From: a phage
Sequence record: PZ019083.1
Length of the DNA: 41,142 bases
Direction: 5' to 3' (one strand)
Part shown: piece after piece, positions 3,324-38,765 of the stretch
How the letters are laid out: the number at the start of each line of letters is the position of its first letter
Position numbering within the stretch: position 1 is the first letter of the stretch
Notes under the pieces: generated by a model
Told to the model about the DNA's origin: nothing
What the model saw: the letters and a program-made list of their open reading frames with translations, nothing else
Database searches by the model: none
Position numbers and translations under genes: made by a program

Positions 3324-3345
3324 AGCCCCGAAAGGGGCTTTCTTA
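3324..3345 (+). terminator. intrinsic terminator (AGCCCC-GAAA-GGGGCT + T-run)
   Basis: Perfect GC hairpin followed by T-rich tract after portal stop. Confidence 0.6.
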
Positions 3346-4913: not shown

Positions 4914-4963
4914 GTGCCTGTGATTATTCCAGTTATTCCACTCAATTGTAAATGTTGGAATAA

Positions 4964-4977
4964 ACTATTCGAATAGT
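4964..4977. promoter_or_regulatory. 14-bp perfect palindrome ACTATTCGAATAGT abutting a TTGACT -35-like hexamer (4977-4982)
   Basis: Perfect dyad; the half-site ACTATTC recurs in promoters elsewhere in the window. Confidence 0.4.
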
Positions 4978-5024
4978 TGACTTTTCACTGAAAATATGAT
5001 AAGCTCCACCTGAGCTTGTGAAGT

Positions 5025-11126: not shown

Positions 11127-11357
11127 TTACTCATCAATGTTACTCCTGTAGTCCCGTAACTTTTCCAGACTTTCAATTGCTTCCGCTAAGTCTGTTCCTG
11201 TGTCCTTGTGCCCGCGAAGGCCCAAGCACAATAGCTTCTTCAATGCGTGTTGCAACGCAGGGTCACGGATGTCGAAAGCACGGAGAACATCGTAAACGTC
11301 TACTGTCATGGTGCTGCCGTGTGTATTTGTCATTGTGCGGTTGTATTTTGAAGTCAT
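11127..11357 (-). CDS. hypothetical protein, DUF3310-like
   Basis: 76 aa; motif ALQHALKKLLCLGLRGHKDTGTDLAEAIESL resembles DUF3310 phage proteins (from memory); ATGA coupling to upstream gene. Confidence 0.4.
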   Translation of the reverse strand: MTSKYNRTMTNTHGSTMTVDVYDVLRAFDIRDPALQHALKKLLCLGLRGHKDTGTDLAEAIESLEKLRDYRSNIDE

Positions 11358-12484
11358 CCCAGCATCTCCGGTGAAATAGTTAAACGTGCGACCTCGCCGT
11401 ATTCGGCGCTATAAGTAATTACATTTGCACTACGGCCCGACATCCAACCGCCTCTGGATGCGTAGGCGTCTTTGGCCGCTAAGGTGCGGTGTTGCTCAAC
11501 AATCATGTTACGGCTTTCTACAATCTTTTGGTGGTGCAGGTGGCCTACGTGGGCGTAGCTATAAACGCTCTCGCCGAACGCTTTGCGGAACTTGGCGATC
11601 ATAACCGGTTCAATAGCGTCGAATCGTGCTTTATGCCCGTGGTGAAAGAACAACGTCGTTTTGCCGTGTTGCACCATCTTGTAAACGTCCGGCGACGTGT
11701 CGACGATCACTCGGCTGTCTTTTGAGTATAAAGTCGTGAACATTTCCGCCAACCACACAGACCCTACAGGGTCGTGATTTCCTTGCACGATAAGCAAGCG
11801 AACATTTTTGTGCTTAACGAGCGCCATATCAACAACACGGCGGACCATACGAATCATGTAACGTACAAGTTTCTGGTAGCGCGTATCTGCATCCAACACA
11901 TGGCGCGACTCAGGCGTAACGGCGTCCAGGCTATCGAAGTGCGCGAAGTCGCCCAGCAGGTTAATAACTCCAGTTCCCGCGTCTGGTGCTTTCTGAAACG
12001 CGGCATCAAACCACCGAGAAAACAGGTCTTCAGCAATCTTCATATCCCAGTCGTCGCCGCTCTCGTCGGCCCAGGCCAGCATGCCGAGATGGAAATCAGA
12101 TACCGTGTAAAGATTGAGTAGCTTGTCATCACGTTTGGCTCGAGTCGCTTTAACAGGGACAACCGGCGTAATCTCTGACTTCATGCCTTCAATTACGGCT
12201 TTCATCAACTCGACCTGACGTTCGGCGTCAGTATCGGTCTTAACCCATTGCAGTTTAGTGTTGCCAAACTCGTCCACTAGTGACGACGTTCCTTTAATCT
12301 TGTAGCCGTCTGGCACAAGGTGACTAACGTCACGTCCGTGGCCTACACCTTTCTTAGCCAGCTTCGCTTTACGGATACGAATAACGCGGTCCGAGATGCC
12401 GTATTTACGGGCGATGTCTACATTCTTCATCCCGGCGTTCAATTCTTCCTGTAACTGTTCGTCGGTTATTTTCTTATGGGCCAT
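11354..12484 (-). CDS. HTH-containing calcineurin-like metallophosphoesterase
   Basis: Motifs SDFHLG, GDFAHFD, GNHD, HHGH, GHLHH; N-terminal HTH-like segment; start at ATG 12484 (MAHKK) with GAGGAAG RBS. Confidence 0.6.
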   Translation of the reverse strand: MAHKKITDEQLQEELNAGMKNVDIARKYGISDRVIRIRKAKLAKKGVGHGRDVSHLVPDGYKIKGTSSLVDEFGNTKLQWVKTDTDAERQVELMKAVIEGMKSEITPVVPVKATRAKRDDKLLNLYTVSDFHLGMLAWADESGDDWDMKIAEDLFSRWFDAAFQKAPDAGTGVINLLGDFAHFDSLDAVTPESRHVLDADTRYQKLVRYMIRMVRRVVDMALVKHKNVRLLIVQGNHDPVGSVWLAEMFTTLYSKDSRVIVDTSPDVYKMVQHGKTTLFFHHGHKARFDAIEPVMIAKFRKAFGESVYSYAHVGHLHHQKIVESRNMIVEQHRTLAAKDAYASRGGWMSGRSANVITYSAEYGEVARLTISPEMLG

Positions 12485-12522
12485 GCTTACTTCCTCGTGT
12501 TTAGGATTTGTCTTATAGTAGC

Positions 12523-12714
12523 CTACTTCTCTTTCACGTTCGAGTTGCAAGCCCAGATTAAAATAAATACCCACGGCAGCAGAACCCAGCCAAGAAACAG
12601 GTTAGCCGTGAATATCGCTAACTTCGCTTTATGGTTACGGAAGTACGCAACCAGGAAAGGCGCGAAATAAGCGAGAAGTGCAAACAGAATCAAGGAAACT
12701 GGTAAACTGGACAT
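12523..12714 (-). CDS. superinfection-immunity-like small membrane protein (Imm_superinfect family-like)
   Basis: Two TM helices; motif YFAPFLVAYFRNHKAKLAIFTANLFLGWVLLPWVFILIWA; AAGGGG RBS before ATG 12714. Confidence 0.5.
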   Translation of the reverse strand: MSSLPVSLILFALLAYFAPFLVAYFRNHKAKLAIFTANLFLGWVLLPWVFILIWACNSNVKEK

Positions 12715-12744
12715 TTTAAACCCCTTCATTGTTGGTGTAAGTGA

Positions 12745-12773
12745 ATAGTACCCTATTATATTGGGGTGTGCAA
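12745..12773 (-). promoter_or_regulatory. sigma70-type promoter TTGCAC-17-TACTAT (class A) driving the antisense accessory operon
   Basis: Near-identical to promoters at 34294 and 35511. Confidence 0.55.
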
Positions 12774-22855: not shown

Positions 22856-22993
22856 CTACTCTTCTGCTAACTTCTCCAGTACAAACGCCAGTTGCGCATT
22901 AGCGGCGTCTCTTTGCTGCCGTAGTCGTAGAACCTCTTCTTCGAGTTCCTTGATACGTTTTTGCAATGCTGGAATCGGCGCTACGATGTTCAT
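22856..22993 (-). CDS. small coiled-coil protein (45 aa)
   Basis: ATGA start-stop overlap with HNH gene; translation MNIVAPIPALQKRIKELEEEVLRLRQQRDAANAQLAFVLEKLAEE. Confidence 0.3.
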   Translation of the reverse strand: MNIVAPIPALQKRIKELEEEVLRLRQQRDAANAQLAFVLEKLAEE

Positions 22994-23304
22994 GCGGTTT
23001 CTCCGTGGTTTTCATGAAATCCGTAAGCAGCTTCCGCGGCTTTACGCGCGGCAACAGCTTCGTTAAAATCATCAAACCTTCCAATAGTTTTTGTCTTTCT
23101 AAATTTGGTTATCTGCACCAACCACTTGCACCGCTCTTTGTCAAATGACACCCCTACCGCCCCAGACCTATTACGCCCAGTAGCCAGCCTGTTCATAGCG
23201 TTTTCTTGCTTAGTAACTACTCTTAAATTTGCGAGCCTGTTATCCGCGCGATTATGATTCTGGTGGTCTATTTCCATGCCGTCTGGTATAGGGCCATTGA
23301 ACAT
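22990..23304 (-). CDS. HNH endonuclease with AP2-like DNA-binding domain; N-terminal part of the domain lies upstream behind in-frame stops
   Basis: Motif EIDHQNHNRADNRLANLR (HNH) then GVSFDKERCKWLVQ...GRFDDFNEAVAARKAAE (AP2-like). Confidence 0.55.
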   Translation of the reverse strand: MFNGPIPDGMEIDHQNHNRADNRLANLRVVTKQENAMNRLATGRNRSGAVGVSFDKERCKWLVQITKFRKTKTIGRFDDFNEAVAARKAAEAAYGFHENHGETA

Positions 23305-23481: not shown

Positions 23482-24903
23482 TTATCGTTTCCTTCTCTTC
23501 ATATAATTAAGTAGTTCGTCCTGTACAGACCTTTTCTCGTCTGTACGCGCGGCGACAACTTCATCAAGAGTATTTCGGGCTATTATTTGATAAATGAATA
23601 CAGACCGTTTGTATCCAGATTGCATCTGCCTTACCGGGCCTATACGCTCGATAACCTGCAGATAATGTTCCAGGTTCCACCCCTGACTAATAAATGCCAT
23701 GTGGTGTCCGCCATGTTGTAGCGACAGCCCGTGGCCCGCAGAAGCTGGGTGTATCAGGAGCATAGGTATCTCACCGCGGTTCCACGCTTCCATCTGCTTA
23801 TTGCCCTTAGCACCTTTTGCAAATGCCTGTGCTTGGGGGAATCGCTTAAGGATGCGCTCCAGTTCGTGCTTGAACTGATAGGCGACCAGTAACGGCGCAC
23901 CCTGTAACTCCTCAACAATTGACTCAAGCGCATCCAGTTTCGTGTCGTGCACTTTCTCCCATTCTTTGGTTGCTTCGCCGTCTTCGCCCGTCACATACAC
24001 AGCACCGGAAGCAATCTGCAAGCACTTAGCCGTTTTAGCGGCGGCGTTGGCGGCCTGCACCTCCCCACTCTCCAGTTCCGCGATTAACTTTTTCTCCATG
24101 TCGTCGTACGCCTGACGCGCTTTCTTCGGCAGGTCGATTTCAACCGGTACAATAATCGGCGCTTCACAACCAAACCACTCGGCGGGGTCGATGGTCAGGC
24201 TGATGTCTTTCATCTTCTGATGAATCTCATTATCGGCACCAGGTCGCGCGTGATATTCACGCGCCATAGCCGACTTACCTTTCTGTACCGAGTTAAACCA
24301 GCGGTCGGTGAATGCTGTGTACGATGAACCGAGTCGCTCACCGGCGTCGATAAACCAGTTCTGACCCCACAAGTCTTTGAGGCCGTTTGGCGACGGCGTA
24401 CCAGTCAGGTTGATGAAACGCCTAACCTTACCGAACGCCACTTTACTAAGCGCCTTTGCTCGCTTGCTTCCGCCAGAACGGCTACGGAATGATTTAAGCT
24501 TCGTGCTTTCATCAGCAACAATAACGGTAAAAGGCCAGTCGTCTTTGCCGTAGTAGTCAATCAGCCACTCGATAACCTCGTAGTTGGTGCATACCACGTT
24601 AGCGTCTGACTCCAGAGCCGCGATGCGGCGCTTCTCCGAACCTGTTGCATCGGCGACACTCAGACACGGGAAACCCCACTTAGTTTGTTCTGCGGGCCAC
24701 GTACCAGACGCAACGCGCAACGGGGCAAGGATTAACACGCGGTCCTCTTCGGTAAGCTGCCCGTTGCGAAACAGTCGGTTGAGCACCCACATAGTAGAGG
24801 AGGTTTTACCCCCTCCCATGCCGCACCAGATATTACAGCGAGGGTGTTGCAACATGAACGAAGTCATGAGCTTCTGGTATTCACGCCTTTGAAACTTACT
24901 CAT
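23482..24903 (-). CDS. SNF2/DEAD-like superfamily 2 DNA helicase
   Basis: Walker A GMGGGKT, DExx box VADEST, helicase C-terminal motifs. Confidence 0.8.
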   Translation of the reverse strand: MSKFQRREYQKLMTSFMLQHPRCNIWCGMGGGKTSSTMWVLNRLFRNGQLTEEDRVLILAPLRVASGTWPAEQTKWGFPCLSVADATGSEKRRIAALESDANVVCTNYEVIEWLIDYYGKDDWPFTVIVADESTKLKSFRSRSGGSKRAKALSKVAFGKVRRFINLTGTPSPNGLKDLWGQNWFIDAGERLGSSYTAFTDRWFNSVQKGKSAMAREYHARPGADNEIHQKMKDISLTIDPAEWFGCEAPIIVPVEIDLPKKARQAYDDMEKKLIAELESGEVQAANAAAKTAKCLQIASGAVYVTGEDGEATKEWEKVHDTKLDALESIVEELQGAPLLVAYQFKHELERILKRFPQAQAFAKGAKGNKQMEAWNRGEIPMLLIHPASAGHGLSLQHGGHHMAFISQGWNLEHYLQVIERIGPVRQMQSGYKRSVFIYQIIARNTLDEVVAARTDEKRSVQDELLNYMKRRKR

Positions 24904-25091
24904 TTTGCCACCAGAACTAACTCTTTACGTCCGAACGCCGTAACGTTACCAGTTACATCTTCGATAACCAGTTTACCGTTCGACTCGACAAACACCGTAT
25001 CTACGGCAACAGGGCGACGGGTCTTAACGTTGAAAATCAGGTCACCAGGTACGATGTCACGTGCTGGTTTGCGGTCATATTCGTGTTTCAT
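24900..25091 (-). CDS. hypothetical protein (63 aa)
   Basis: ATGA coupling to helicase gene; immediately downstream of promoter at 25125-25153. Confidence 0.4.
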   Translation of the reverse strand: MKHEYDRKPARDIVPGDLIFNVKTRRPVAVDTVFVESNGKLVIEDVTGNVTAFGRKELVLVAK

Positions 25092-25121
25092 TTCTCAATT
25101 CCTTATATTGTTGGTGTAGGG

Positions 25122-25406
25122 CTAACTATAATAGTTAGCTATTAGGTCGTCAACCTGTTTAAACGAACCAACGACAAAAACATTCGCGCCACGTTTACGC
25201 ATCCGCGCGTGTTCACGTAGCTGGTGCGGGTCTGGCTTCGTGTTTTCGTCTTTCTTAACCTCGACGAACCAGACTATGCCGCCGGGGAGAATTACCAGCA
25301 GGTCAGGAGCGCCTGAGCGCCCCTCGTAAGACAGCTTACGAACGAGGCCACCAATGGCCTCGAACATCTCTTTTGCGTATTTCTGAATCTTGCCTTCCGG
25401 GGTCAT
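25122..25406 (-). CDS. VRR-NUC domain nuclease
   Basis: Motif GAPDLLVILPGGIVWFVEVK typical of VRR-NUC PD-(D/E)XK fold. Confidence 0.65.
   Translation of the reverse strand: MTPEGKIQKYAKEMFEAIGGLVRKLSYEGRSGAPDLLVILPGGIVWFVEVKKDENTKPDPHQLREHARMRKRGANVFVVGSFKQVDDLIANYYS
25125..25153 (-). promoter_or_regulatory. sigma70 promoter TTGACG-17-TATAGT (class B) embedded in 3' end of VRR-NUC gene
   Basis: Same architecture as promoters at 28680 and 30799. Confidence 0.5.
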
Positions 25407-25555
25407 GAGCGCAGAACCCAGGTTATAAACGCTCCTCCGAGAACGGCAACGCCAACAAACTTAAAGAACAGGCCGTAACAGAACATCGCAGCTATTCCCG
25501 CGCCGAGTAACAGTGCGAGCATGGTTACTATCGCCCAAAATACAAACATTGTCAT
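25403..25555 (-). CDS. small membrane protein (50 aa)
   Basis: Two hydrophobic helices; ATGA overlaps on both sides. Confidence 0.35.
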   Translation of the reverse strand: MTMFVFWAIVTMLALLLGAGIAAMFCYGLFFKFVGVAVLGGAFITWVLRS

Positions 25556-25641
25556 AATACGCACCCCTCGCGTTTCGTGTGCTCAATACCGCAGCGCGGA
25601 CAGATTCGGCAGTCTTCTTCGTAGAACCAGTAAATTTTCAT
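25552..25641 (-). CDS. mini zinc-ribbon-like protein (29 aa)
   Basis: Translation MKIYWFYEEDCRICPRCGIEHTKREGCVL (C-x2-C-x2-C ... C); ATGA overlaps on both sides. Confidence 0.3.
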   Translation of the reverse strand: MKIYWFYEEDCRICPRCGIEHTKREGCVL

Positions 25642-25769
25642 TCCAGCACCCACAGATAAATTGCGATGAACATTCCCAATACCGCAGCCATCATGCCGTA
25701 TTGGCCCTCGTGACAATAGACACCGGCGGCAAATCCTGCCAGTAACGCGATAATCAGTTTACTTAGCAT
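25638..25769 (-). CDS. small membrane protein (43 aa)
   Basis: Hydrophobic; starts 11 nt inside DNA polymerase 3' end. Confidence 0.3.
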   Translation of the reverse strand: MLSKLIIALLAGFAAGVYCHEGQYGMMAAVLGMFIAIYLWVLE

Positions 25770-27939
25770 AGCGCTTCATCTCCGCACCTTCTGCCACAAG
25801 AGGGAACCCTTCGGCCCATTCCGGTAATTCGCACATTAATTTTTCCAGTTCAGCCACCGTGTACTCAGGTGTGTCTGGAGTTTCACACACTAATTCATCG
25901 TGTACCGAAAGCACGATGGGGTACCCGCCGCCCTCAACATTAATCATCGCGTATGCGAGTAAATCACGGCACAGCGCCTGAGTGCAGTTTTCCACCAGTT
26001 TACCGGAGTAGGTGTACTGGAAGCCCCACTGACGGGTTAACTGGTTTTCGCCCTGGTACTTGATGCGCACGTTAGTGGACACCTTCCCGTCTTCGTCTGC
26101 CTCTTTAGACACACTTAACCCGACGCCCGGATAAGACATAACGCGGCCCGACGGCAACGTCATGCGCAGCCACCAACCAGCGACTTTGTTGCCGTTGTTA
26201 TCTGTTTCTACGTTACGCGAAAACTTAACTCCCCGCGGACCTGCAGTGAACTCTTTACCTGGGTTGCGGATAGCCGCCATAGCTGCGTCTTCAATATCAC
26301 GCCAGAATGCTACTGTTTCAGGGTGAGACTCCCGCCACATGCGCTTGATAGCGTCACAGGTGCGCCACACTTTCTTATCAAGAATATATGACGGCCGGTC
26401 GTCTTTTTCACCAGGACGTGGTTGTCGCTTGGCTTCCTGAATACGTGCCCACTCATATCCACGTGCGGTAGCGGTCCAGATGTGGTCGGGGAAAGTACCG
26501 TCCATTGTTTTAGCCATATCAACCAGGTCAAGGCCGAGGTTCTTGGCGAACTGTACGAATGCGCCGACACCGCCCGCGTAGCCAAGACCCAATTCACAGG
26601 CTTTACCAATCTGGCGTAAGTCTTTACGTTCTTTCTTAATGTAATCCGGATCCATGCCAAACATCTTACCCGCGGTTACACAGTAAATATCCAGCCCAGC
26701 GCGGAACGTATCGAGCGCGGTTTCTTCTCCCGCCAGCCACGCAAGCCCACGGCCTTCAACGTTAGAGTAATCGGCAACGACAAACTTATGCCCTGCTTCC
26801 GGGATAATGCAGCTACGAACTGTCGATGCCGTCAGCTTGGCTACGTCAAATCGGCGGTGAGCACGACCCTTAAGTAACGCTGAAATGCCTTTATCCAGTT
26901 CATCATCATGATAGTACCCGCGGGCCAGGTTCTGCGGCTGAAAGCCTTTACCCGCCCATCGCAAAGTACGTTTTGCCCCGCCGTACTGTAAACAACCGCG
27001 GCGTCGGTCGTCCGACGAGCGGCCCAACAGCAGCGGGTTATATTTCGTTGATGCGGTGGATGCGGCCCCGAGGCGCATTTCGATAATCGTGCGAGCGTCG
27101 TCCGGTAAATCATCATCCGCCAGCAGGTCGTTAAGCGTCGACTTCTGCGCATTGTGGATGCGGTGCGCTGGCGCAAGTTCACGCAGAATCGGAAGGAAGT
27201 CTTTACCGGTAAGTGAGCCGCCGTATTTGCGTTGGGCTTCTTCCTGTAACTGTGCCTTGTGCTTCTCCACGGCTTCAATCGCTGCTTCTGCCAGCGCTAC
27301 GTCAACCTTAAACCCGCGGTCGTTGATTAACTGGTCCAGTTCCAGTACACGGTCTTCAAACTCGGAGTTACCCCACCGCGGCAGCTTATGGAAGACTTCC
27401 CGCATCGCAGTGATGTCGCTCACGGCGTACTTGATGAACAGCGCCCACTCATCGGGATGTGTTTCAGCGGTGTAGCGGCGGATTTTGTAGTTCTTAGGTG
27501 TCGGTTTAGAAAAACGCTGAATCAGCGCCTTGCCGCGTTTGTCTTTTGCGTTGTCCGCAGACACGCCCAGCACTTCGCACAATGCGTCAAGTGAACCCGG
27601 CAGCGCGTGGCGAAACGCCCAAATCATCGTATCAATGGTGTTGCTTACCGGAATATCAAAGTCCCAGCAGTGTTTCATGATGAGCCTGTCGAACATTGAG
27701 CCGTTGTGCCACACCATCTTAATGCGGCTGTTTGGCTTAACCAGACGGCGTAAGGCGCGGTGCAAATCCCCCGGCATGTCGCTGCCGTCTGTGCAATCCC
27801 ATACCTGCACAGGCTCGTCGTCAAAAGCGTATGTGCAGATAAGCACTTCGGTAGTTGGGTGCTCTGCGTAAGCGTATGAACCGACTTTCTTTAAATCGGC
27901 TTCGGAGAATGTTTCAAAGTCTAAGAACAGGTAACTCAT
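25759..27939 (-). CDS. DNA polymerase, family A with N-terminal 3'-5' exonuclease
   Basis: N-terminal LDFETFS exo motif, 726 aa, Pol A-like C-terminal region. Confidence 0.8.
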   Translation of the reverse strand: MSYLFLDFETFSEADLKKVGSYAYAEHPTTEVLICTYAFDDEPVQVWDCTDGSDMPGDLHRALRRLVKPNSRIKMVWHNGSMFDRLIMKHCWDFDIPVSNTIDTMIWAFRHALPGSLDALCEVLGVSADNAKDKRGKALIQRFSKPTPKNYKIRRYTAETHPDEWALFIKYAVSDITAMREVFHKLPRWGNSEFEDRVLELDQLINDRGFKVDVALAEAAIEAVEKHKAQLQEEAQRKYGGSLTGKDFLPILRELAPAHRIHNAQKSTLNDLLADDDLPDDARTIIEMRLGAASTASTKYNPLLLGRSSDDRRRGCLQYGGAKRTLRWAGKGFQPQNLARGYYHDDELDKGISALLKGRAHRRFDVAKLTASTVRSCIIPEAGHKFVVADYSNVEGRGLAWLAGEETALDTFRAGLDIYCVTAGKMFGMDPDYIKKERKDLRQIGKACELGLGYAGGVGAFVQFAKNLGLDLVDMAKTMDGTFPDHIWTATARGYEWARIQEAKRQPRPGEKDDRPSYILDKKVWRTCDAIKRMWRESHPETVAFWRDIEDAAMAAIRNPGKEFTAGPRGVKFSRNVETDNNGNKVAGWWLRMTLPSGRVMSYPGVGLSVSKEADEDGKVSTNVRIKYQGENQLTRQWGFQYTYSGKLVENCTQALCRDLLAYAMINVEGGGYPIVLSVHDELVCETPDTPEYTVAELEKLMCELPEWAEGFPLVAEGAEMKRYAK

Positions 27940-27954
27940 TATTTTCGACCCTTA

Positions 27955-27979
27955 GTAAAAAGGCCCAATGAAGGGCCTT
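27955..27979 (-). terminator. intrinsic terminator / attenuator between DUF2815-like gene and DNA polymerase
   Basis: On minus strand: AAGGCCC-TTCATT-GGGCCTT followed by TTTTT. Confidence 0.45.
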
Positions 27980-27998
27980 AGTTAAATTGATTCAGATA

Positions 27999-28625
27999 TT
28001 AGCGGCGACGACGTTCGCGGCGCGGTGCTTCATCTTCTTCGTCGTCTTCCAGGTCATTGACGCTTGCGGCGACTTTAGAACCACCAAACGCCTTACCTTC
28101 GCCGACGTATTTAATTCCCAGCAGTTTAACACCGAGGACTTTATATTTCTGGCTGAACCAGATTTCAACGCTTACGTTAGCGACGCATCCGCTGTAAACC
28201 TGTTCGCCTTCAATCTGTTCACCGTCTACATTGAAGTCCTGTTCTACCTGAGTCTCACCTTTTTTAGAGGTTATAATCAGCGGCTGTTTCTGCGCCTTCG
28301 CTTTGAAGTAGAAGCCTTCCGGGAAGTCTTCAAAGGGATTGTCACGCTCGGCAATGTCTTTAACAGCACATTTATCCATGTGCTTACCTTCGCCGTAGTT
28401 GGACCTCATCCACTTCTCTGCGGCGGCAGCACCTAACGCTTCTTCAACTACGGCGTAAACAGTGTCGTAAAGCGCATCGATTTGCGCATGGTCTGGCGGC
28501 AGGATAATAGTCGCGCTGTACTGGCCTTTAGTAATTGAGCCATCATCGTTTTCGCGGTCTTTTTCGCGTTCGAATACGTTAACCCAAGCAGTGTTTACTT
28601 TACGCAGATTTAATGTCAGTCCCAT
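27999..28625 (-). CDS. putative ssDNA-binding protein (DUF2815-like)
   Basis: 208 aa with acidic C-terminal tail, adjacent to polymerase and Cas4-like nuclease. Confidence 0.45.
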   Translation of the reverse strand: MGLTLNLRKVNTAWVNVFEREKDRENDDGSITKGQYSATIILPPDHAQIDALYDTVYAVVEEALGAAAAEKWMRSNYGEGKHMDKCAVKDIAERDNPFEDFPEGFYFKAKAQKQPLIITSKKGETQVEQDFNVDGEQIEGEQVYSGCVANVSVEIWFSQKYKVLGVKLLGIKYVGEGKAFGGSKVAASVNDLEDDEEDEAPRRERRRR

Positions 28626-28679
28626 CTTGATTTCTCGCTTTTAAGTTTACTCCGGGAAGCTGCCCGGCCAGTGATTAGA

Positions 28680-28708
28680 ACTATAATAGCTAACTATTCA
28701 GGTGTCAA
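28680..28708 (-). promoter_or_regulatory. sigma70 promoter TTGACA-17-TATAGT (class B)
   Basis: Consensus -35, 17-bp spacer containing GAATAGT element. Confidence 0.6.
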
Positions 28709-28712
28709 CACT

Positions 28713-29954
28713 TTATTCTAAATCTTCTCCACTAACCTGATTCCACTCAGGCCGTTTGTCGTCTGCCGTTGCAACGCATGGCGCTCCCGGCTTACGGGTA
28801 ATGAAGTCTTTCAGTTCTTCTTCCGGTATTACTTTAACAGCTTCGGTCGGTGTCATTAGCACTTCTTTAGTTAGCTTGTCGCCGTAGAGTTCTGTTACTT
28901 TCTCCGCGTCTTTCCACGCACGATTACTGGGACGGCCTTCAACCAGTTTGTACCCAGGCACTTTCTTACCTGAATGCAAAGCGGCGGCCATCGCTTTTTC
29001 AACCTTGTCGATGTGCTGGCGCAACAGCGGCAACTTCTCATACTCAGCTACGAGTTGCTCAGGCGTAAGTTCCAGCGCAAAGTCGTCCTCCAGTTCTTCC
29101 GCCAGTACCGCGTTAACGGTTTTTGTACGCGCGGCGCACTGTTCTGAGAACCGACACCACTGACAACCATCTGCAGAAGGCTTGAAGTCCGACGCTTTCA
29201 GGTTCTTCTTGCCGCGGGAATAAGCATCAAGAGCCAACAGCGCGCGTTTATGTGCGAACTTAGCGAACAGTTCCAGACCTTCAACCGAGATGTCCCACTC
29301 CGACGCACCGCCAGCATACGGCTGGAAGATTACCAGACGAACGGTTGTTATGTTATAACGTCTCTTGAGTCGGCGATAAACACCGAGAGCGTAAAGCATA
29401 AGCTGCTTGTTTTCTTTCGCTTCGACGCGATGTCGCCCGGTTTTAAGGTCCCCAATAATGAGCATGTGCTCGTCGGTGTTAGCCAGTTCCTGAACGGCAA
29501 CAAGGTCAGCGGTCCCGAACGTCTCAACGCCTTCATACCCAGGATGCAATACCTCAGTGAGATTGACGCGCATTTCCAGCTTGGCGTAAGTCGCAACGTC
29601 GATAATCGCTTTGCAGTAGTCGGTATACTTGCGCACCTGCTCAATCATGTCAGCCGTAATCAGTACCGCGCCTTTCACCGGGCTGATTAGAGCCTTAATC
29701 TGACCTTTGCCCTCATCCAACACGTAAGCACCAACTTCACGCTCTAATGGAAACGCAGTGCCTTTGATGTACTGGTTAAGGTGCATTTCCGCTATGGTGT
29801 GCATAGTCGTACCTAATACTGCGGCCTTACCGGACGTGTTAGGAATATCTTTTTCACAGGCCAGTGATGCAGCACAGCTTAGCCACTTTTTAGCGCCAGA
29901 CGGCGACAGCAGGGCGTGCACATCGTTATTGCCGCCGCGTTCTTTTAAAATCAT
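28713..29954 (-). CDS. Cas4-like PD-(D/E)XK exonuclease (DUF2800-like) with C-terminal Cys cluster
   Basis: N-terminal LSPSGAKKWLSC, C-terminal CQWCRFSEQC; ATG 29954 with GGGAGA RBS and ATGA coupling. Confidence 0.55.
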   Translation of the reverse strand: MILKERGGNNDVHALLSPSGAKKWLSCAASLACEKDIPNTSGKAAVLGTTMHTIAEMHLNQYIKGTAFPLEREVGAYVLDEGKGQIKALISPVKGAVLITADMIEQVRKYTDYCKAIIDVATYAKLEMRVNLTEVLHPGYEGVETFGTADLVAVQELANTDEHMLIIGDLKTGRHRVEAKENKQLMLYALGVYRRLKRRYNITTVRLVIFQPYAGGASEWDISVEGLELFAKFAHKRALLALDAYSRGKKNLKASDFKPSADGCQWCRFSEQCAARTKTVNAVLAEELEDDFALELTPEQLVAEYEKLPLLRQHIDKVEKAMAAALHSGKKVPGYKLVEGRPSNRAWKDAEKVTELYGDKLTKEVLMTPTEAVKVIPEEELKDFITRKPGAPCVATADDKRPEWNQVSGEDLE

Positions 29955-30223
29955 ACCCTGTTCTCCCACTGGTCGATTAAATGTCGTGTCTTATGCCCAC
30001 AATGCATAGCCCACCCATACATCGACTCAAAAACATAAAAGTCAGGCTTGGCGAAAGTCGTGCGCTTAATCTGTGACACGTGACGGCCTAAAGATATAGG
30101 CCGCGGTACTTTGCCTAAGTACGCCATCTCTTCCATCTGGTGCGCACCGGACGGCGCACGCAACAGCCATAGTGCCTCCGTGTTGTCCCGCCTGTCTACG
30201 GCCCGGTAGAGTTGGTAAATCAT
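29951..30223 (-). CDS. hypothetical protein (90 aa)
   Basis: Coupled upstream of nuclease gene. Confidence 0.35.
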   Translation of the reverse strand: MIYQLYRAVDRRDNTEALWLLRAPSGAHQMEEMAYLGKVPRPISLGRHVSQIKRTTFAKPDFYVFESMYGWAMHCGHKTRHLIDQWENRV

Positions 30224-30266
30224 AATTCCGACCCTCAGTTAAAGCGGCCCGAAGGCCGCGAGATAG

Positions 30267-30767
30267 TTAGTCTTCTTCGAAATACTTGTTCTTGATTGCC
30301 GTCAGGCGTTCAAGGTACTCAGCAAGGTCTTCATCTTTAATCGCGGCAATCTTCATCTTCTTACCGGTGAACTCCTCCAGCAGTTCATCAGAATCATCAC
30401 ACGCGGCATCGCTCGGACCTTCGTTAATGGCGTCGTCGATAGCCTGAATCTGGTCACGCAGAGACTGGTAATCGACTTCTTCTTTCTCTTCTTCCGGCTC
30501 TGGTGTCGGCTCCTCTACTTTAGCTTTACGCGGCTTGCGTTTTGGCTTCTCTTCTTCAACCGGTTTAGTATCAACTACGTCTTCACCTTCGACCGGGATT
30601 TCTTTTGATCCTTCTTCTGCACACTTGGCTACTGCTTCTTTGGTATACGCTACCGTCTCTACTTCCAGAGGCGCGGAAACCTGAACAACTTGTTTCACGC
30701 TGTTCGCAGCAATCAGTTCATGAGCAACTACGAAACGTTCCAGTAATACTAAGAATTTCTCTAACAT
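30267..30767 (-). CDS. highly acidic hypothetical protein with short basic patch
   Basis: E/D-rich (PEPEEEKEE, DDSDELLEE) plus KPKRKPRKAK. Confidence 0.4.
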   Translation of the reverse strand: MLEKFLVLLERFVVAHELIAANSVKQVVQVSAPLEVETVAYTKEAVAKCAEEGSKEIPVEGEDVVDTKPVEEEKPKRKPRKAKVEEPTPEPEEEKEEVDYQSLRDQIQAIDDAINEGPSDAACDDSDELLEEFTGKKMKIAAIKDEDLAEYLERLTAIKNKYFEED

Positions 30768-30798
30768 TTGTTTCTCTCCTCTCGTTTGGTATGGGCTA

Positions 30799-30827
30799 AC
30801 TATAATAGCGAACTATTCACATGTCAA
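30799..30827 (-). promoter_or_regulatory. sigma70 promoter TTGACA-17-TATAGT (class B), overlaps operator repeat R1
   Basis: Consensus hexamers; spacer carries ACTATTCACATGTCAA. Confidence 0.6.
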
Positions 30828-30855
30828 TGGGCTTTTCTAAAATAATTAATATGGT

Positions 30856-30871
30856 ACTATTCACATATCAA
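30856..30871 (+). promoter_or_regulatory. operator repeat R2 (ACTATTCACATATCAA) overlapping -10 TACTAT of the Cro-like gene promoter
   Basis: 15/16 identical direct repeat of 30812-30827, 44 bp apart. Confidence 0.45.
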
Positions 30872-30891: not shown

Positions 30892-31107
30892 ATGCAACCA
30901 TCTGAACTAGGCATTCGTGTAGAACAACGCCGTAAAGAACTTGGCATCTCCCAGCGCCGTCTGGCTGTCCTGACCGGGGTTTCCCAGGGCGCGATTAACC
31001 AGCTTGCGCTCGGGGTAACTCAGGACGTCCGCCCGGCGACGCTGTTTAAACTGGCGGAAGTGCTGCAAGTAGACGCCAAGTGGCTGGCGTTAGGTGAAGG
31101 GGCTTAA
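30892..31107 (+). CDS. Cro/CI-type (XRE family) HTH transcriptional regulator
   Basis: Motif GISQRRLAVLTGVSQGAINQLALG; 71 aa. Confidence 0.65.
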   Translation: MQPSELGIRVEQRRKELGISQRRLAVLTGVSQGAINQLALGVTQDVRPATLFKLAEVLQVDAKWLALGEGA

Positions 31108-31122
31108 CGCCCCTTTCTTTTT
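31098..31122 (+). terminator. intrinsic terminator
   Basis: AGGGGC-TTAAC-GCCCCT + TTTCTTTTT, stop codon inside loop. Confidence 0.55.
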
Positions 31123-33453: not shown

Positions 33454-33729
33454 TTATTCCAGGTCGCGGGAGATATTACCCTCGGGGACCAACACTTTTC
33501 CAATACTTCTCGCTTTCCCGTTAAGCGGCGTTGCTCTTGTTGCCCGATAAAACTTTCCTTTATTAAGAACCTCTCCGTGTTGCTCAAGAACACTTAAAGC
33601 ATGTTTAATCGGATTTACACCGTAATTATCTAACCGGTATCTACGAAGCCCGTCTAGTGTAAAAGCGCCGTTCGCCTCGGTCAGTCTGCGTGCGCACATT
33701 AATACGTGTTTCTGGAATTTAGTTAGCAT
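33454..33729 (-). CDS. hypothetical protein (91 aa)
   Basis: Coupled downstream of small HTH gene. Confidence 0.35.
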   Translation of the reverse strand: MLTKFQKHVLMCARRLTEANGAFTLDGLRRYRLDNYGVNPIKHALSVLEQHGEVLNKGKFYRATRATPLNGKARSIGKVLVPEGNISRDLE

Positions 33730-33898
33730 CTTTTACGTTCTCCTTAATCCAAGCCTCCACGGTAGCGCGGTCAAATGTGCCTGGCTGCCGGTAGCCGTTA
33801 ATAACCCGGCAACACTCGGGGAACTTACCTGACCGAAGCCAGCGATTAAGTGTCATAGGGGAAACTCCGATTAAGTCTGCTACTTCTTTCTGTGTCAT
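33719..33898 (-). CDS. small HTH DNA-binding protein (AlpA/excisionase-like fold)
   Basis: MTQKEVADLIGVSPMTLNRWLRSGKFP; ATG 33898 with AGAGGG RBS. Confidence 0.5.
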   Translation of the reverse strand: MTQKEVADLIGVSPMTLNRWLRSGKFPECCRVINGYRQPGTFDRATVEAWIKENVKDAN

Positions 33899-33960: not shown

Positions 33961-33988
33961 TTGACAAAATAAAATGTAGCTGTAAAAT
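33961..33988 (+). promoter_or_regulatory. sigma70 promoter TTGACA-16-TAAAAT
   Basis: Consensus -35; faces a 350-bp noncoding stretch. Confidence 0.5.
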
Positions 33989-34210
33989 CAACGTATCGAA
34001 GGACCTTAGTTCAGAATTACTTAGAAACAGTATTCTTAAGTCTCTGGTGACCAAAGCCCGGCCCATAAAGGACGGGCGCTGAGAGTCACTTCGACAACGT
34101 TAGTATCTAAGTTTCCTCAAAGTAACAGCAAGTAGCAAGAAAGCCCCCGTCTATTTAAATTTTGCCATATGGTATAAATCATTGATTTGCAAGCTCACTC
34201 ACTCACTCTT

Positions 34211-34226
34211 GGTGCCTTCGGCACCA
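34211..34226 (+). other. GGTGCC-TTCG-GGCACC hairpin (UUCG tetraloop)
   Basis: Perfect 6-bp stem, followed by GTTCGTTTCGTTTCG. Confidence 0.4.
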
Positions 34227-34293
34227 CGTTCGTTTCGTTTCGCTCGCTACCCCCATTAAACGAAAGAATCACAACGGCAACGTAACTATTCTC

Positions 34294-34322
34294 TTGCACA
34301 CCCCAACATAATAGGATACTAT
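34294..34322 (+). promoter_or_regulatory. sigma70 promoter TTGCAC-17-TACTAT (class A)
   Basis: Near-identical to 35511 and 12745(-); ACTATTC copies at 34285 and 34318. Confidence 0.55.
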
Positions 34323-34356
34323 TCACTTATCGGAACGAGACAGAGGAGTGAGGGTT

Positions 34357-35510: not shown

Positions 35511-35539
35511 TTGCACGCTAATATAGAATAGGTTACTAT
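35511..35539 (+). promoter_or_regulatory. sigma70 promoter TTGCAC-17-TACTAT (class A)
   Basis: Consensus-like; ACTATTCA overlapping -10/+1. Confidence 0.55.
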
Positions 35540-35570
35540 TCATTTACACAAACGAGAGGAGAGGCGGAAG

Positions 35571-37228: not shown

Positions 37229-37268
37229 ATCCTCCAGTTACTGCATACTTAATACGCACCTGGAGGAT
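37229..37268 (+). promoter_or_regulatory. stem-loop pairing ATCCTCCAG with CCTGGAGGAT, sequestering the holin Shine-Dalgarno
   Basis: 9-bp inverted repeat, 21-nt loop; second arm contains GGAGGA 6 nt before holin TTG start. Confidence 0.4.
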
Positions 37269-37273
37269 TCATC

Positions 37274-37582
37274 TTGGATAAATTTACTGAAACAGTGACG
37301 GGGTGGCTTCTCGCTGCCGCACTGGTCGGTGGATTGGTCGGACTAAGACAACATAAAAAGTCTATATCCGGGCCGATTGACGGACTGGTATTTCTTCTAA
37401 CCGGCTTTGCGTGTGCCATTTTCGGTGCACCTCTTGCCGCTCAATGGTTCGGTATTACCGGTGAGCGTGAGATAGCTGGCCTCGGATTCATCATTGCCAT
37501 TCTCTGGATGCCTATCTATTCCCGCCTTTCTGGCATCGTATCGGGTGGAGATATTTCCCGTCCGGGAGGACCTCATGACTGA
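37274..37582 (+). CDS. holin (3 predicted TM segments)
   Basis: Small protein with three hydrophobic helices and charged C-terminus, TTG start after GGAGGA. Confidence 0.55.
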   Translation: MDKFTETVTGWLLAAALVGGLVGLRQHKKSISGPIDGLVFLLTGFACAIFGAPLAAQWFGITGEREIAGLGFIIAILWMPIYSRLSGIVSGGDISRPGGPHD

Positions 37583-37847
37583 GCTATTCTGGTTTGTCGT
37601 AATGCTTTCAATGGGCGCTTCGTCCCTGTTCAACGTGTATAATGAGCGTGTGGACGACGGGCTGTTCGGGCGTGTTCTCTATATCCTGACCGCTATTGTC
37701 TGCGCCGCCGGGTGTATCCACCTGTTACAGGGCGGCATGTCGCCTACGTTGCCCGAGACATTAATCACATTAGTTGCGCTGCGTCAGATTCGTCAGGCGT
37801 GGCTGTCGTACGGAGGACATAAGCGTGTCTCGAAACATTTCAGATAA
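37575..37847 (+). CDS. second holin / antiholin-like membrane protein (2 TM)
   Basis: GGGAGGA RBS; two hydrophobic helices; overlaps neighbours. Confidence 0.45.
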   Translation: MTELFWFVVMLSMGASSLFNVYNERVDDGLFGRVLYILTAIVCAAGCIHLLQGGMSPTLPETLITLVALRQIRQAWLSYGGHKRVSKHFR

Positions 37848-38310
37848 TGGATTGCATTTTACCTCTGCATTTGAGGGATTCCGCGGAACTGCGTATCGTG
37901 CTACCCCAAACGAGAAGTACCTTACTATTGGGTACGGACATTACGGGCCGGACGTAACCCCGGGTAAGACCATCACACCGGGGCAGGGCTTGCTGTTACT
38001 GAATCGCGATATGGCTAAGGCTGTAGCTGCGGTTGACGCGGCAGCACACCATTCGCTGACACAGGCACAGTTTGATGCAGTGTGCGACCTGGTCTATAAC
38101 GCGGGTGCTGGTGTGATTGCAGCTACTACAGGCACGGGTAAGGCGCTGCGTTCTGGTGATATTGCAACGCTGCGGGCTAAGCTGGCGCTGTTTATCAACC
38201 AGAACGGCAAACCGTTACTCGGCCTGCGTCGCCGTACAGCCGGACGCCTTGCACTGTTCGACGGTAAACCGTGGCAGGAGGCTGAGGCTATTGGGAGGGC
38301 TGTTAAATGA
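37825..38310 (+). CDS. endolysin, lysozyme-like (glycoside hydrolase, T4/lambda-type fold)
   Basis: Motif FEGFRGTAYRATPNEKYLTIGYGH with catalytic Glu context; GTG start after GGAGGA. Confidence 0.65.
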   Translation: MSRNISDNGLHFTSAFEGFRGTAYRATPNEKYLTIGYGHYGPDVTPGKTITPGQGLLLLNRDMAKAVAAVDAAAHHSLTQAQFDAVCDLVYNAGAGVIAATTGTGKALRSGDIATLRAKLALFINQNGKPLLGLRRRTAGRLALFDGKPWQEAEAIGRAVK

Positions 38311-38714: not shown

Positions 38715-38736
38715 ATTTATTTTCTGCAATGACTAG

Positions 38737-38765
38737 TTGACTATTACCTTCGACCCTATTATATT
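38737..38765 (+). promoter_or_regulatory. sigma70 promoter TTGACT-17-TATATT
   Basis: Near-consensus hexamers upstream of gene at 38800. Confidence 0.55.

Follow-up and report, generated by a model that had tools for sequence, protein, structure and literature searches.

The DNA analysed here is a stretch of 41,142 nt (PZ019083.1, hereafter the window) from a lytic E. coli phage, a K1G/K1H-like Kagunavirus, and its replication region matches 462 deposited genomes. Within the minus-strand replication block, a single gene lies on the plus strand (30892..31107). It encodes a 71-aa XRE/HTH_3 protein, which Pfam, PDB and fold matches make a candidate repressor, and it forms a one-gene unit closed by a terminator-like hairpin (31086..31117, plus strand) between the convergent HTH and helicase-primase genes. 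Leftward, a promoter with the structure TTGACA-17-TATAGT (30799..30827, minus strand; 11/12) drives a 166-aa gene, a 90-aa gene and a gene for a DUF2800/PD-(D/E)XK exonuclease. The core of the HTH gene's own promoter, as read from the sequence, is an extended -10, TGgTACTAT (30852..30860, plus strand), with no good -35; the -10 occupies the same position in Jerseyvirus and more distant groups, where TTGnnn is found 17-18 bp before it. Wherever a related locus encodes a homologue (63/64), the HTH gene and the first replication promoter are divergent, and this synteny holds even for groups whose neighbouring gene has fallen to 31-42% identity.

A first-pass annotation of the sequence had called this gene Cro-like, and our searches bear this out. 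The 71-aa protein matches HTH_3 (PF01381) with 48.2 bits against a cut-off of 23 (E=1.1e-12), and its top sequence matches in the PDB are 434 Cro (71 aa) and the N-terminal domain of the 434 repressor (E about 7e-6). The alignment with 434 Cro spans residues 6-68, as expected of a single-domain protein with no C-terminal oligomerisation or cleavage domain. An AF2 model (pLDDT 77.5) predicts a five-helix HTH fold (helices at 5-17, 21-28, 32-39, 48-57 and 62-66), whose best fold match is 2cro (TM 0.69/0.75, 40% identity), and the controller (C) proteins of R-M systems are also among its top fold matches. As had been noted before, no integrase and no CI-like repressor, which would be the partner of CI length in a lysis-lysogeny switch, was found in Pfam/PHROGs scans of the window's ORFs, in the annotation of relatives or in PMC9825357. 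The 71-aa protein may work like Cro, yet outside any bistable CI/Cro switch.

Three minus-strand promoters of the form TTGACR-N17-TATAGT had been proposed, and all three are present as exact matches (25125-25153, 28680-28708 and 30799-30827). They are the top minus-strand matches of our consensus scan (11/12, 11/12 and 10/12, all with 17-bp spacers), and at one mismatch or fewer the window holds four matches to the pattern against 0.25 expected, a number that no shuffle reached. Near-consensus hexamers, a spacing within 16-18 bp and a place upstream of genes identify them as sigma-70 promoters, with starts predicted from sequence, and their -35 and -10 are conserved in orthologous alignments. 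The promoter at 28680..28708 (TTGACA-17-TATAGT) drives the gene for an Enc34-type SSB and then, past a terminator, that for DNA polymerase, while the one at 25125..25153 (TTGACG-17-TATAGT) lies inside the last VRR-NUC codons and drives a 63-aa gene and the helicase gene.

The spacer element (G/T)AATAG(T/C) ascribed to these promoters is indeed there, as one of the two arms of a 14-bp dyad, AATAG-N4-CTATT. Similarly, the 16-nt direct repeat described beside the HTH gene exists (ACTATTCACATGTCAA at 30812-30827 and ACTATTCACATATCAA at 30856-30871, 44 bp apart and identical at 15/16 positions), and there are two copies of a putative operator at this gene; the operator itself, however, would be the inverted repeat and not the direct one. 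The tail of the 16-mer, CACATRTCAA, corresponds in the first copy to variable spacer plus the leftward promoter's -35. This tail differs between Kagunaviruses and has no repeat in Jerseyvirus, so that the unit conserved in relatives is the dyad and not the 16-mer. The first site, O1, is an exact dyad (AATAGCGAACTATT, 30804..30817) in the spacer of the leftward promoter, abutting its -10 (about -25 to -12). The second, O2, has one mismatch (AATATGGTACTATT, 30848..30861; PWM score 16.6) and lies over the -10 of the HTH gene's own promoter, 44 bp from O1 centre to centre. Predicted dyad operators thus overlap promoter cores beside the regulator gene, its own promoter included, with the weaker copy on the latter, which upholds the proposed repressor-operator layout with autoregulation.

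We then asked how the dyad is distributed in the window. A blind count of gapped palindromes, covering all dyads of a 5-mer, a gap of 0-8 and the reverse complement, ranks AATAG-N4-CTATT first. With at most one mismatch it occurs 10 times (six exact copies, four with one mismatch) against 0.86 expected, and none of 100 shuffles reached 10 copies. In nine of the 10 copies, the dyad overlaps a sigma-70-type promoter core at its -35 or -10, at a distance of 25-75 nt from the start codon downstream. Placements over the spacer, the -10 and the -35 all occur, which makes three registers, and copies face either way with respect to transcription; the dyad is therefore not part of the promoter consensus itself. 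Exact dyads have PWM scores of 23-25 and one-mismatch dyads of 15.6-17.5, against a maximum of 18.5 in shuffled sequence; the one-mismatch sites, scoring within the range of the best shuffled matches, rest on context and conservation and not on score alone.

In the replication block, the dyad and alignment scans place further copies in the 28680..28708 promoter (AATAGCTAACTATT, 28685-28698) and the 25125..25153 promoter (AATAGTTAGCTATT, 25130-25143). The sites had been described for this module (25125-30871), to which they are not confined, as more copies begin at 4972, 12744, 34310, 35527 and 38732. They extend the set to a superinfection-immunity gene, two rightward accessory-gene units, one of which reaches the lysis genes, and two further promoters. 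The first is served by a TTGCAC-17-TACTAT promoter (12745..12773, minus strand) ahead of superinfection-immunity (Imm_superinfect, 3e-12) and metallophosphoesterase genes, with the dyad (12744-12757) overlapping its -10 (about -19 to -6). Two plus-strand promoters with the same hexamers carry the dyad over the -10. One (34294..34323; AATAGGATACTATT at 34310-34323), with many orthologous copies among relatives, precedes the first of the small rightward genes downstream, and the other (35511..35540; AATAGGTTACTATT at 35527-35540) drives a unit reaching the holin and endolysin genes. A dyad promoter ahead of holin and endolysin genes fits poorly with a pure 'early shut-off'. At the two remaining plus-strand promoters, the dyad has one mismatch and covers the -35: ACTAGTTGACTATT (38732-38745) is centred on the -35 of TTGACT-17-TATATT (38732..38765), its place being taken in relatives by AATAGTTGACTAGT or ACTAGTCAACTATT, and AATAGTTGACTTTT (PWM score 15.6) lies in the same register in TTGACT-17-TAAGCT (4972..5005). 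The promoter family with a shared element in or beside the promoter core is thus real; because its sites cover at least nine promoters genome-wide, both the 'replication module' and the simple early/late 'temporal control' previously suggested are too narrow.

Comparison with relatives supports the dyad as the conserved unit. In each of the 51 Kagunavirus and Jerseyvirus sequences examined, it ranks first among gapped palindromes. Alignments anchored on genes, and not on the motif, show preserved half-sites, with variation in the central 4 bp and in the spacer between the -35 and the dyad; at the 28680..28708 promoter, for example, the -35, half-sites and -10 are conserved and the central 4 bp vary. 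O2 is conserved in all Kagunavirus upstream alignments, and the O1-O2 spacing is, depending on the lineage, 43-45, 55 or 64-65 bp (~4.2, 5.2 and 6.2 helical turns). Distant groups with other recognition helices have different dyads, both in front of their own HTH gene and at the same promoters: two loci have three copies each of TTAGC-N2-GCTAA, and AATAC-N4-GTATT is also found. Just outside the half-site, 40/40 Jerseyvirus arms have T, whereas 44/118 Kagunavirus arms have G, a difference that parallels their different helix 3 sequences, with few independent clades behind these lineage comparisons. Helix 3 differs at 4/6 positions between Kagunavirus (SQGAINQ) and Jerseyvirus (SQSLITH) and the AATAG/CTATT core is common to both; a simple helix-to-base code therefore fails, a point against the HTH protein as the binder.

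Based on these findings, we propose that AATAG-N4-CTATT is the operator of the phage's 71-aa 434-Cro-like HTH protein, a reading to which we give a probability of about 55%. Operators of phage 434 comprise 14 bp with 5+5 contacted bases and four uncontacted central ones (PMC1636474). In the same architecture, a dimer of the 71-aa protein would occupy each 14-bp site by placing a recognition helix on each 5-bp arm, leaving the central 4 bp unread, and would obstruct RNA polymerase, since every site overlaps the -10, spacer or -35 of a host sigma-70 promoter. The protein would be produced from the start of infection via its own extended -10 promoter. As it accumulates, it would lower at least eight other promoters, i.e. 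those of three replication units, the immunity gene, two rightward accessory units, one of them including the lysis genes, and two more, and would lower its own promoter last, its site being the weakest. The predicted outcome is negative feedback across much of the genome of a phage without lysogeny genes. The literature searched reports neither binding nor expression measurements on any member of this phage subfamily.

The dyad could also be a real operator with another binder, which we consider unlikely: a transcription factor of the E. coli/Salmonella host, or a different phage protein, for example the 59-aa HTH_17 (excisionase-like) product encoded at 33719-33898. A dyad core shared by groups whose XRE proteins differ in helix 3 would be accounted for in this way, the hosts of Kagunavirus and Jerseyvirus are closely related enterobacteria, and HTH_17 homologues were found in no loci other than those of Kagunavirus and Jerseyvirus, which are also precisely the carriers of the AATAG dyad. 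Nevertheless, HTH_17 is absent or replaced in two relatives (L021 and L009) that retain six and three exact dyads, its recognition helix varies within Kagunavirus while the dyad is unchanged, and it is a lone small winged-helix domain without a dimerisation module. The lack of the dyad in Cornellvirus SP-031 and phage SE1, which infect Salmonella, argues against a host factor, and we know of no E. coli regulator with an AATAG-N4-CTATT consensus. We also considered an AlpA-type promoter-loaded antiterminator as in P. aeruginosa, defined by a Q-like protein of >140 aa with an N-terminal segment in the RNA exit channel, a 6-bp monomer spacer site and a sigma-dependent pause, and rejected it: the HTH_17 product consists of 59 aa with an HTH domain only, L021 and L009 do without it, and AlpA's own element, GGGACG, is asymmetric (PMC9371919).

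Explanations that dispense with a regulator, in which promoter cassettes were copied by duplication or recombination or the sequence in the spacer and next to the -10 simply makes a strong sigma-70 promoter, appear less probable still. In their favour, the sites also have 5' leaders in common (ACACCAACAAT..AAGG and AACGAGAGGAGAG), several inserted genes on the minus strand of a relative come with an identical 20-mer, and at most sites the -10 and the right arm, CTATT, run into each other, this arm alone persisting in groups that have lost the left one. Such accounts leave unexplained that the arms are symmetric when only one of them can act as a -10, that the dyad takes its three registers and both orientations, that two genera retain both arms despite divergence of the central 4 bp and the adjacent spacer, and that other lineages carry different perfect dyads in the same place. 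The motif itself has been published: the PHIRE motif of the related Escherichia phage fBC-Eco01, with seven matches at equivalent positions and the consensus tgAATAGTa-ccTATTat-T, is the same sequence as the dyad and was labelled 'Phage RNAP promoter' (PMC9825357). That report lists the 20-mer of the 12745..12773 site, TGAATAGTACCCTATTATAT, three times and the 4972..5005 promoter as host promoter HP1; it does not mention the dyad symmetry, the link to the XRE gene or the overlap with sigma-70 cores. For vB_EcoS-Golestan, a PHIRE 'phage promoter' motif was reported without its sequence in the main text (PMC7203180). We regard a phage polymerase promoter as highly improbable, as the motif is symmetric, is found in either orientation with respect to the gene downstream and in every case lies within a canonical -35/-10 pair spaced by 17-18 bp. 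A phage RNA polymerase gene was found neither in Pfam/PHROGs scans of the window's ORFs nor in the annotation of K1H or Ent1, which makes the published label a misattribution.

The proposed operator-repressor pair most closely resembles the 434 system, in which Cro is likewise a single-domain HTH_3 protein of 71 residues, the operator a 14-bp dyad with 5-bp arms and four variable central bases, and the operators lie over divergent promoters beside the regulator gene, one of them its own. In contrast to 434, the phage studied here has no CI partner and no lysogeny genes, its sites are scattered singly over at least nine promoters instead of forming tandem triple operators, and the two at the regulator gene are 44 bp apart rather than adjacent. 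The half-site is AATAG as opposed to ACAAG in 434, and the protein is only ~40% identical to 434 Cro, with a two-residue insertion before the conserved Arg-Pro. C.AhdI and C.BclI are comparable as small XRE-fold dimers with dyads over their own promoter and concentration-dependent autoregulation; however, a C protein controls a single promoter through two adjacent dyads, activating before repressing, whereas here many separate promoters carry sites whose positions are ill-suited to activation. In the temperate mycobacteriophage L5, the repressor gp71 binds dispersed 'stoperator' sites in short intergenic regions, which are asymmetric, orientation-dependent 13-mers acting mainly downstream of promoters. 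One small phage repressor with many site copies across the genome is the common feature, while the sites described here are symmetric and lie on promoter cores in a phage without lysogeny genes.

It is conceivable, though we think it doubtful, that in the strictly lytic Guernseyvirinae most non-structural transcription is under one Cro-like master repressor of lineage-diverged specificity. If so, the specificities AATAG/CTATT, AATAC/GTATT and TTAGC-N2-GCTAA would define 'immunity groups' among virulent phages: a cell filled with repressor would keep an incoming genome silent if it belonged to the same group and not if it belonged to another, and competition among lytic phages infecting the same cell would consequently drive operator switching. 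Cooperative binding or looping at the control region would then explain why O1 and O2 keep their helical phasing (~4.2, 5.2 and 6.2 turns).

For therapy and biocontrol of E. coli and Salmonella, few phages are isolated as often as Kagunaviruses and Jerseyviruses, and we found nothing on the timing of their gene expression in the literature searched. Our analysis corrects the annotation of a motif whose single mention in print attributes it to a polymerase that these phages were not found to encode. It also provides a candidate circuit, consisting of one 71-aa protein and about nine sites in a lytic siphovirus dependent on host RNA polymerase, that bears on the control of replication, immunity and lysis genes. 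Such a circuit would offer compact, strong, repressible promoter/operator parts and is a possible basis of interference between related therapeutic phages combined in cocktails.

An exact match to TTGACR-N17-TATAGT was found at each of the three minus-strand promoters that the first-pass annotation had placed in the replication module (25125-25153, 28680-28708 and 30799-30827), and the same three were the best minus-strand matches in a consensus scan (11/12, 11/12 and 10/12). The element (G/T)AATAG(T/C), described as common to their spacers, is present but is actually the left arm of an inverted repeat, AATAG-N4-CTATT, hereafter the dyad. Six exact copies lie at 12744, 25130, 28685, 30804, 34310 and 35527, and four copies with one mismatch at 3344, 4972, 30848 and 38732; these ten compare with 0.86 expected, and 0 of 100 shuffles reached ten. 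A blind count in the window of every combination of 5-mer, gap of 0-8 and reverse complement also returned AATAG-N4-CTATT as the commonest. The original observation is thus confirmed and enlarged.

A recognisable sigma-70-type promoter core accompanies nine of the ten dyads, with a start codon 25-75 nt downstream, and the position of the dyad relative to the promoter is not fixed. At the three replication promoters it takes up the spacer as far as the -10 (about -25 to -12). At three TTGCAC-17-TACTAT promoters, located at 12773-12745 (minus strand) and at 34294-34322 and 35511-35539 (plus strand), its right arm contains the -10 (about -19 to -6) and its orientation to transcription is reversed compared with the spacer register. 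In a third register, seen at 38732 and 4972, the middle of the dyad falls on the -35 TTGACT. Where the promoter corresponding to that at 30827 has an 18-bp spacer, as in some Kagunaviruses, the dyad keeps its distance to the -10 and not to the -35. Because the dyad is symmetric, shifts register and occurs in both orientations, it is not part of the sequence recognised by polymerase; it looks like a candidate protein-binding site placed wherever polymerase would be obstructed. A position weight matrix trained on the six exact sites is circular for those and served only to rank secondary sites.

The one-mismatch dyad at 4972 is overlapped by a perfect 16-bp palindrome, AACTATTCGAATAGTT (4963-4978), which holds the same half-sites everted (CTATT-CG-AATAG) immediately upstream of the -35 TTGACT. 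The 20-mer TGAATAGTACCCTATTATAT (12744-12763), which precedes the immunity gene, recurs without a change at two sites of the related phage fBC-Eco01, both in the half of its genome that carries the structural genes; a third fBC-Eco01 site, at the expected immunity-gene position, differs from it by two bases (PMC9825357, Table S2). Promoter-operator cassettes seem to travel along with inserted genes such as the immunity gene, and the one-mismatch site at 3344, directly after the portal-gene terminator and lacking a -35, may be a remnant of one.

The gene order of the window was derived from Pfam, PHROGs and the annotation of K1H, which, like K1G and K1ind (Escherichia phages of the genus Kagunavirus, subfamily Guernseyvirinae), shares about 90% identity with the 10-kb stretch surrounding the finding; 462 deposited phage records match this stretch, mostly Salmonella Jerseyviruses and E. 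coli Kagunaviruses. Structural genes occupy the plus strand to about 22.8 kb, interrupted by a minus-strand pair for a superinfection-immunity protein and a metallophosphoesterase (11354-12729). A minus-strand replication block (22.9 to 33.9 kb) encodes helicase, VRR-NUC nuclease, DNA polymerase, Enc34-type SSB, DUF2800 exonuclease and helicase-primase; its sole plus-strand gene (30892-31107) encodes a 71-aa HTH protein. The plus-strand block of small genes from 34.3 kb includes the holins and endolysin (37274-38310). The reported lack of an integrase or CI-like repressor holds: neither an integrase nor a CI-length repressor was found in the window with these annotations, and the literature on fBC-Eco01, a close relative, agrees (PMC9825357). 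An HNH endonuclease ORF is present at 22990-23304 (minus strand). Comparison of 24900-25125 with K1H (1906-2730 in locus L001) shows that the window lacks a cytosine DNA methyltransferase gene, which in K1H lies between the helicase gene and a 63-aa gene. A mosaic slot upstream of the helicase-primase gene (33454-33898, minus strand) holds a 59-aa excisionase-like HTH_17 protein and a 91-aa protein (PHROG 5169); the related loci L021 (3566-4151) and L009 have a 47-aa zinc-ribbon-like ORF and a 149-aa ORF there instead. The HTH_17 of the window is unlike that of other Kagunaviruses, which resembles the Jerseyvirus version. Minus-strand hairpins with short T-runs follow the SSB gene (27955-27985) and a 166-aa gene (30240-30262), and the genome of Jerseyvirus Ent1 has annotated terminators at both positions; as they lie inside the replication operons, read-through would be needed to express polymerase and exonuclease.

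We then compared relatives, collected as 64 viral contigs by a locus search with the neighbouring 166-aa protein. AATAG-N4-CTATT is the commonest gapped dyad, or tied for it, in each of 49 Kagunavirus and Jerseyvirus loci and in the complete Ent1 genome, and it recurs at orthologous promoters of the SSB gene, the 63-aa gene, the immunity gene and a rightward unit. Alignments anchored on genes and not on the motif show conservation of the -35, the -10 and both arms, whereas the central four bases and the stretch between -35 and dyad vary. Cornellvirus SP-031 and phage SE1 keep the -10-proximal arm alone. More distant lineages carry other dyads. Two loci (group H: L066, L068) have TTAGC-N2-GCTAA three times each inside promoters, plus a one-mismatch copy before their own HTH gene. 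Locus L063 has AATAC-N4-GTATT, in which the fifth base is changed symmetrically in each arm, at the promoter of the 166-aa gene and one other, and a one-mismatch copy precedes its HTH gene; a protein-based search for further members of this lineage returned the same contig only, and a pattern scan of viral contigs with AATACNNNNGTATTATAGT gave more than 120 unrelated AT-rich matches, none usable. A further locus (L055) carries four copies of TAATAN-N4-CTATTA. Every related group keeps a further element between the SSB promoter -10 at 28680 and the ATG at 28625, the small hairpin CCGGG-CAGCTT-CCCGG within CACTGGCCGGGCAGCTTCCCGGAGTAAAC (28652-28667, minus strand). Its stem reads CTCGG/CCGAG in the two groups furthest away, where two of five pairs are changed on both sides and still pair (4/11 sequences); folding energy by itself does not set the hairpin apart. 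It may serve the SSB message as a translational operator or a processing site.

Two dyads precede the HTH gene. O1 (30804-30817) is the exact dyad in the spacer of the leftward promoter, and O2 (30848-30861; AATATGGTACTATT) is a one-mismatch copy covering the -10 of the HTH gene promoter, which in Kagunaviruses consists of an extended -10, TGgTACTAT (30852-30860, plus strand), without a usable -35. Jerseyvirus and more distant relatives have TTGnnn 17-18 bp before the same position, so the -10 inside O2 (TACTAT/TATAGT) is the real HTH promoter. An alternative from the consensus scan, TTCACA-16-TAAAAT (30816-30843, plus strand), was rejected, since neither Jerseyvirus nor the distant groups conserve it. 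A hairpin terminator lies at the end of the HTH gene and also serves the convergent helicase-primase gene, which makes the HTH gene a one-gene unit. The 16-nt direct repeat previously noted here is real, with its two 16-mers at 30812 and 30856, but it amounts to the right dyad arm plus ten further bases. In the first 16-mer these ten belong to the leftward promoter, being its variable spacer and its -35; they vary among Kagunaviruses (CACTTGTCAA, CACCTGTCAA, CATGATGTCAA) and are unrepeated in Jerseyvirus, so the near-identity is partly incidental. The centres of O1 and O2 are 43-45 bp apart in Kagunavirus; Jerseyvirus has a spacing of 55 bp and four distant groups one of 64-65 bp. These spacings correspond to about 4.2, 5.2 and 6.2 helical turns, which would keep both on roughly the same helix face as whole turns come and go. 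With three spacing classes, this constant phasing is a suggestive hint of function only.

Which protein would bind the dyad? The 71-aa protein matches HTH_3 (E=1e-12), and the solved proteins nearest to it in sequence are 434 Cro, which likewise has 71 aa, and the DNA-binding domain of 434 repressor. An AlphaFold2 model (pLDDT 77.5) is a five-helix fold whose best structural match is 434 Cro (2cro, 40% identity). Operators of 434 span 14 bp, of which the outer 5+5 bases are contacted and the central four are not (PMC1636474), and the dyad has the same 5+4+5 architecture. Wherever a related locus encodes a homologue (63 of 64; L054 gave no ORF match), the HTH gene is divergent from the first replication promoter, the most distant loci included, and its recognition helix differs between groups with different dyads. 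The weak point of the HTH protein as binder is that Kagunavirus (SQGAINQ) and Jerseyvirus (SQSLITH) helices differ at four of six positions despite a shared AATAG core. Their operators do differ slightly: all 40 of 40 Jerseyvirus arms have T as the adjoining outer base, and 44 of 118 Kagunavirus arms have G, usually with one G arm and one T arm per site, although these counts are not phylogenetically independent. A word-indexed protein search returned only near-identical HTH proteins and no characterised homologue. The second candidate is the HTH_17 protein (33719-33898), which co-occurs with the AATAG dyad at genus level; however, its helix varies within the genus, and unrelated genes replace it in two loci that retain six and three exact dyads. 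A host factor is less likely, because SP-031 and SE1 also infect Salmonella yet lack the dyad. The terminators inside the operons also raised the idea that an AlpA-like antiterminator loads at the dyad, but this reading was rejected: AlpA of P. aeruginosa is larger and Q-like and has an asymmetric site of 6 bp (PMC9371919), whereas the HTH_17 protein here has 59 aa only and is dispensable, being missing from two dyad-keeping loci.

With the HTH protein as binder, the predicted effect would be repression and not activation, because the three promoters with the dyad in the spacer are close to consensus as they stand, with an optimal spacing of 17 bp, and each of the sites covers at least part of a core element. 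The protein would be produced from the onset of infection off its own promoter; its dimer would fill the exact sites first, blocking polymerase at the replication, immunity and accessory promoters, and its own weaker site, O2, would be filled last. A dyad is lacking at the divergent pair of promoters near 33.9 kb, one for the HTH_17/helicase-primase unit and the other the very strong promoter at 33961, and at the promoter ahead of the packaging genes (41063). The element at 33961-34230 (plus strand) comprises the 33961 promoter (TTGACA-16-TAAAAT, 11/12), the best on its strand in the region, and about 300 nt that hold no plausible ORF and end in the hairpin TGGTGCCTTCGGCACCA (34210-34226). In Ent1 the corresponding region is a gap of 1 kb in which no genes are annotated, and an Rfam scan of the whole window, this region included, matched no family; it may be a non-coding RNA or a replication origin.

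The earlier interpretation, a repressor-operator switch giving temporal control, is partly supported. One dyad-bearing unit continues into the lysis genes, with no terminator between them and the 35511 promoter, so the circuit would not simply shut off early genes; a better fit is a homeostatic brake acting on all non-structural transcription. In the same unit, a 9-bp stem, AUCCUCCAG...CUGGAGGAU (37229-37268, plus strand; -18.8 kcal/mol, z = -2.8 against shuffles), pairs the Shine-Dalgarno of a TTG-initiated holin gene, which suggests translational control of lysis timing.

The motif itself has been published under another label. The genome paper of fBC-Eco01 lists seven PHIRE matches (consensus tgAATAGTa-ccTATTat-T) as 'phage RNA polymerase promoters' (PMC9825357), and the Golestan paper gives seven PHIRE promoters without comment (PMC7203180); neither mentions that the motif is symmetric, lies in a sigma-70 context or accompanies an XRE gene. 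Neither the window nor the annotated relatives yielded a gene for a phage RNA polymerase, and the literature searched gave no transcriptomic, operator or binding studies of the subfamily. We infer a Cro-type repressor/operator arrangement in unusual use, with no CI partner and with single operators dispersed over most non-structural promoters of a lytic phage. Its regulatory logic would be familiar; the putative circuit is clean and testable, belongs to a group of phages in wide use, and corrects what has been published on the motif.
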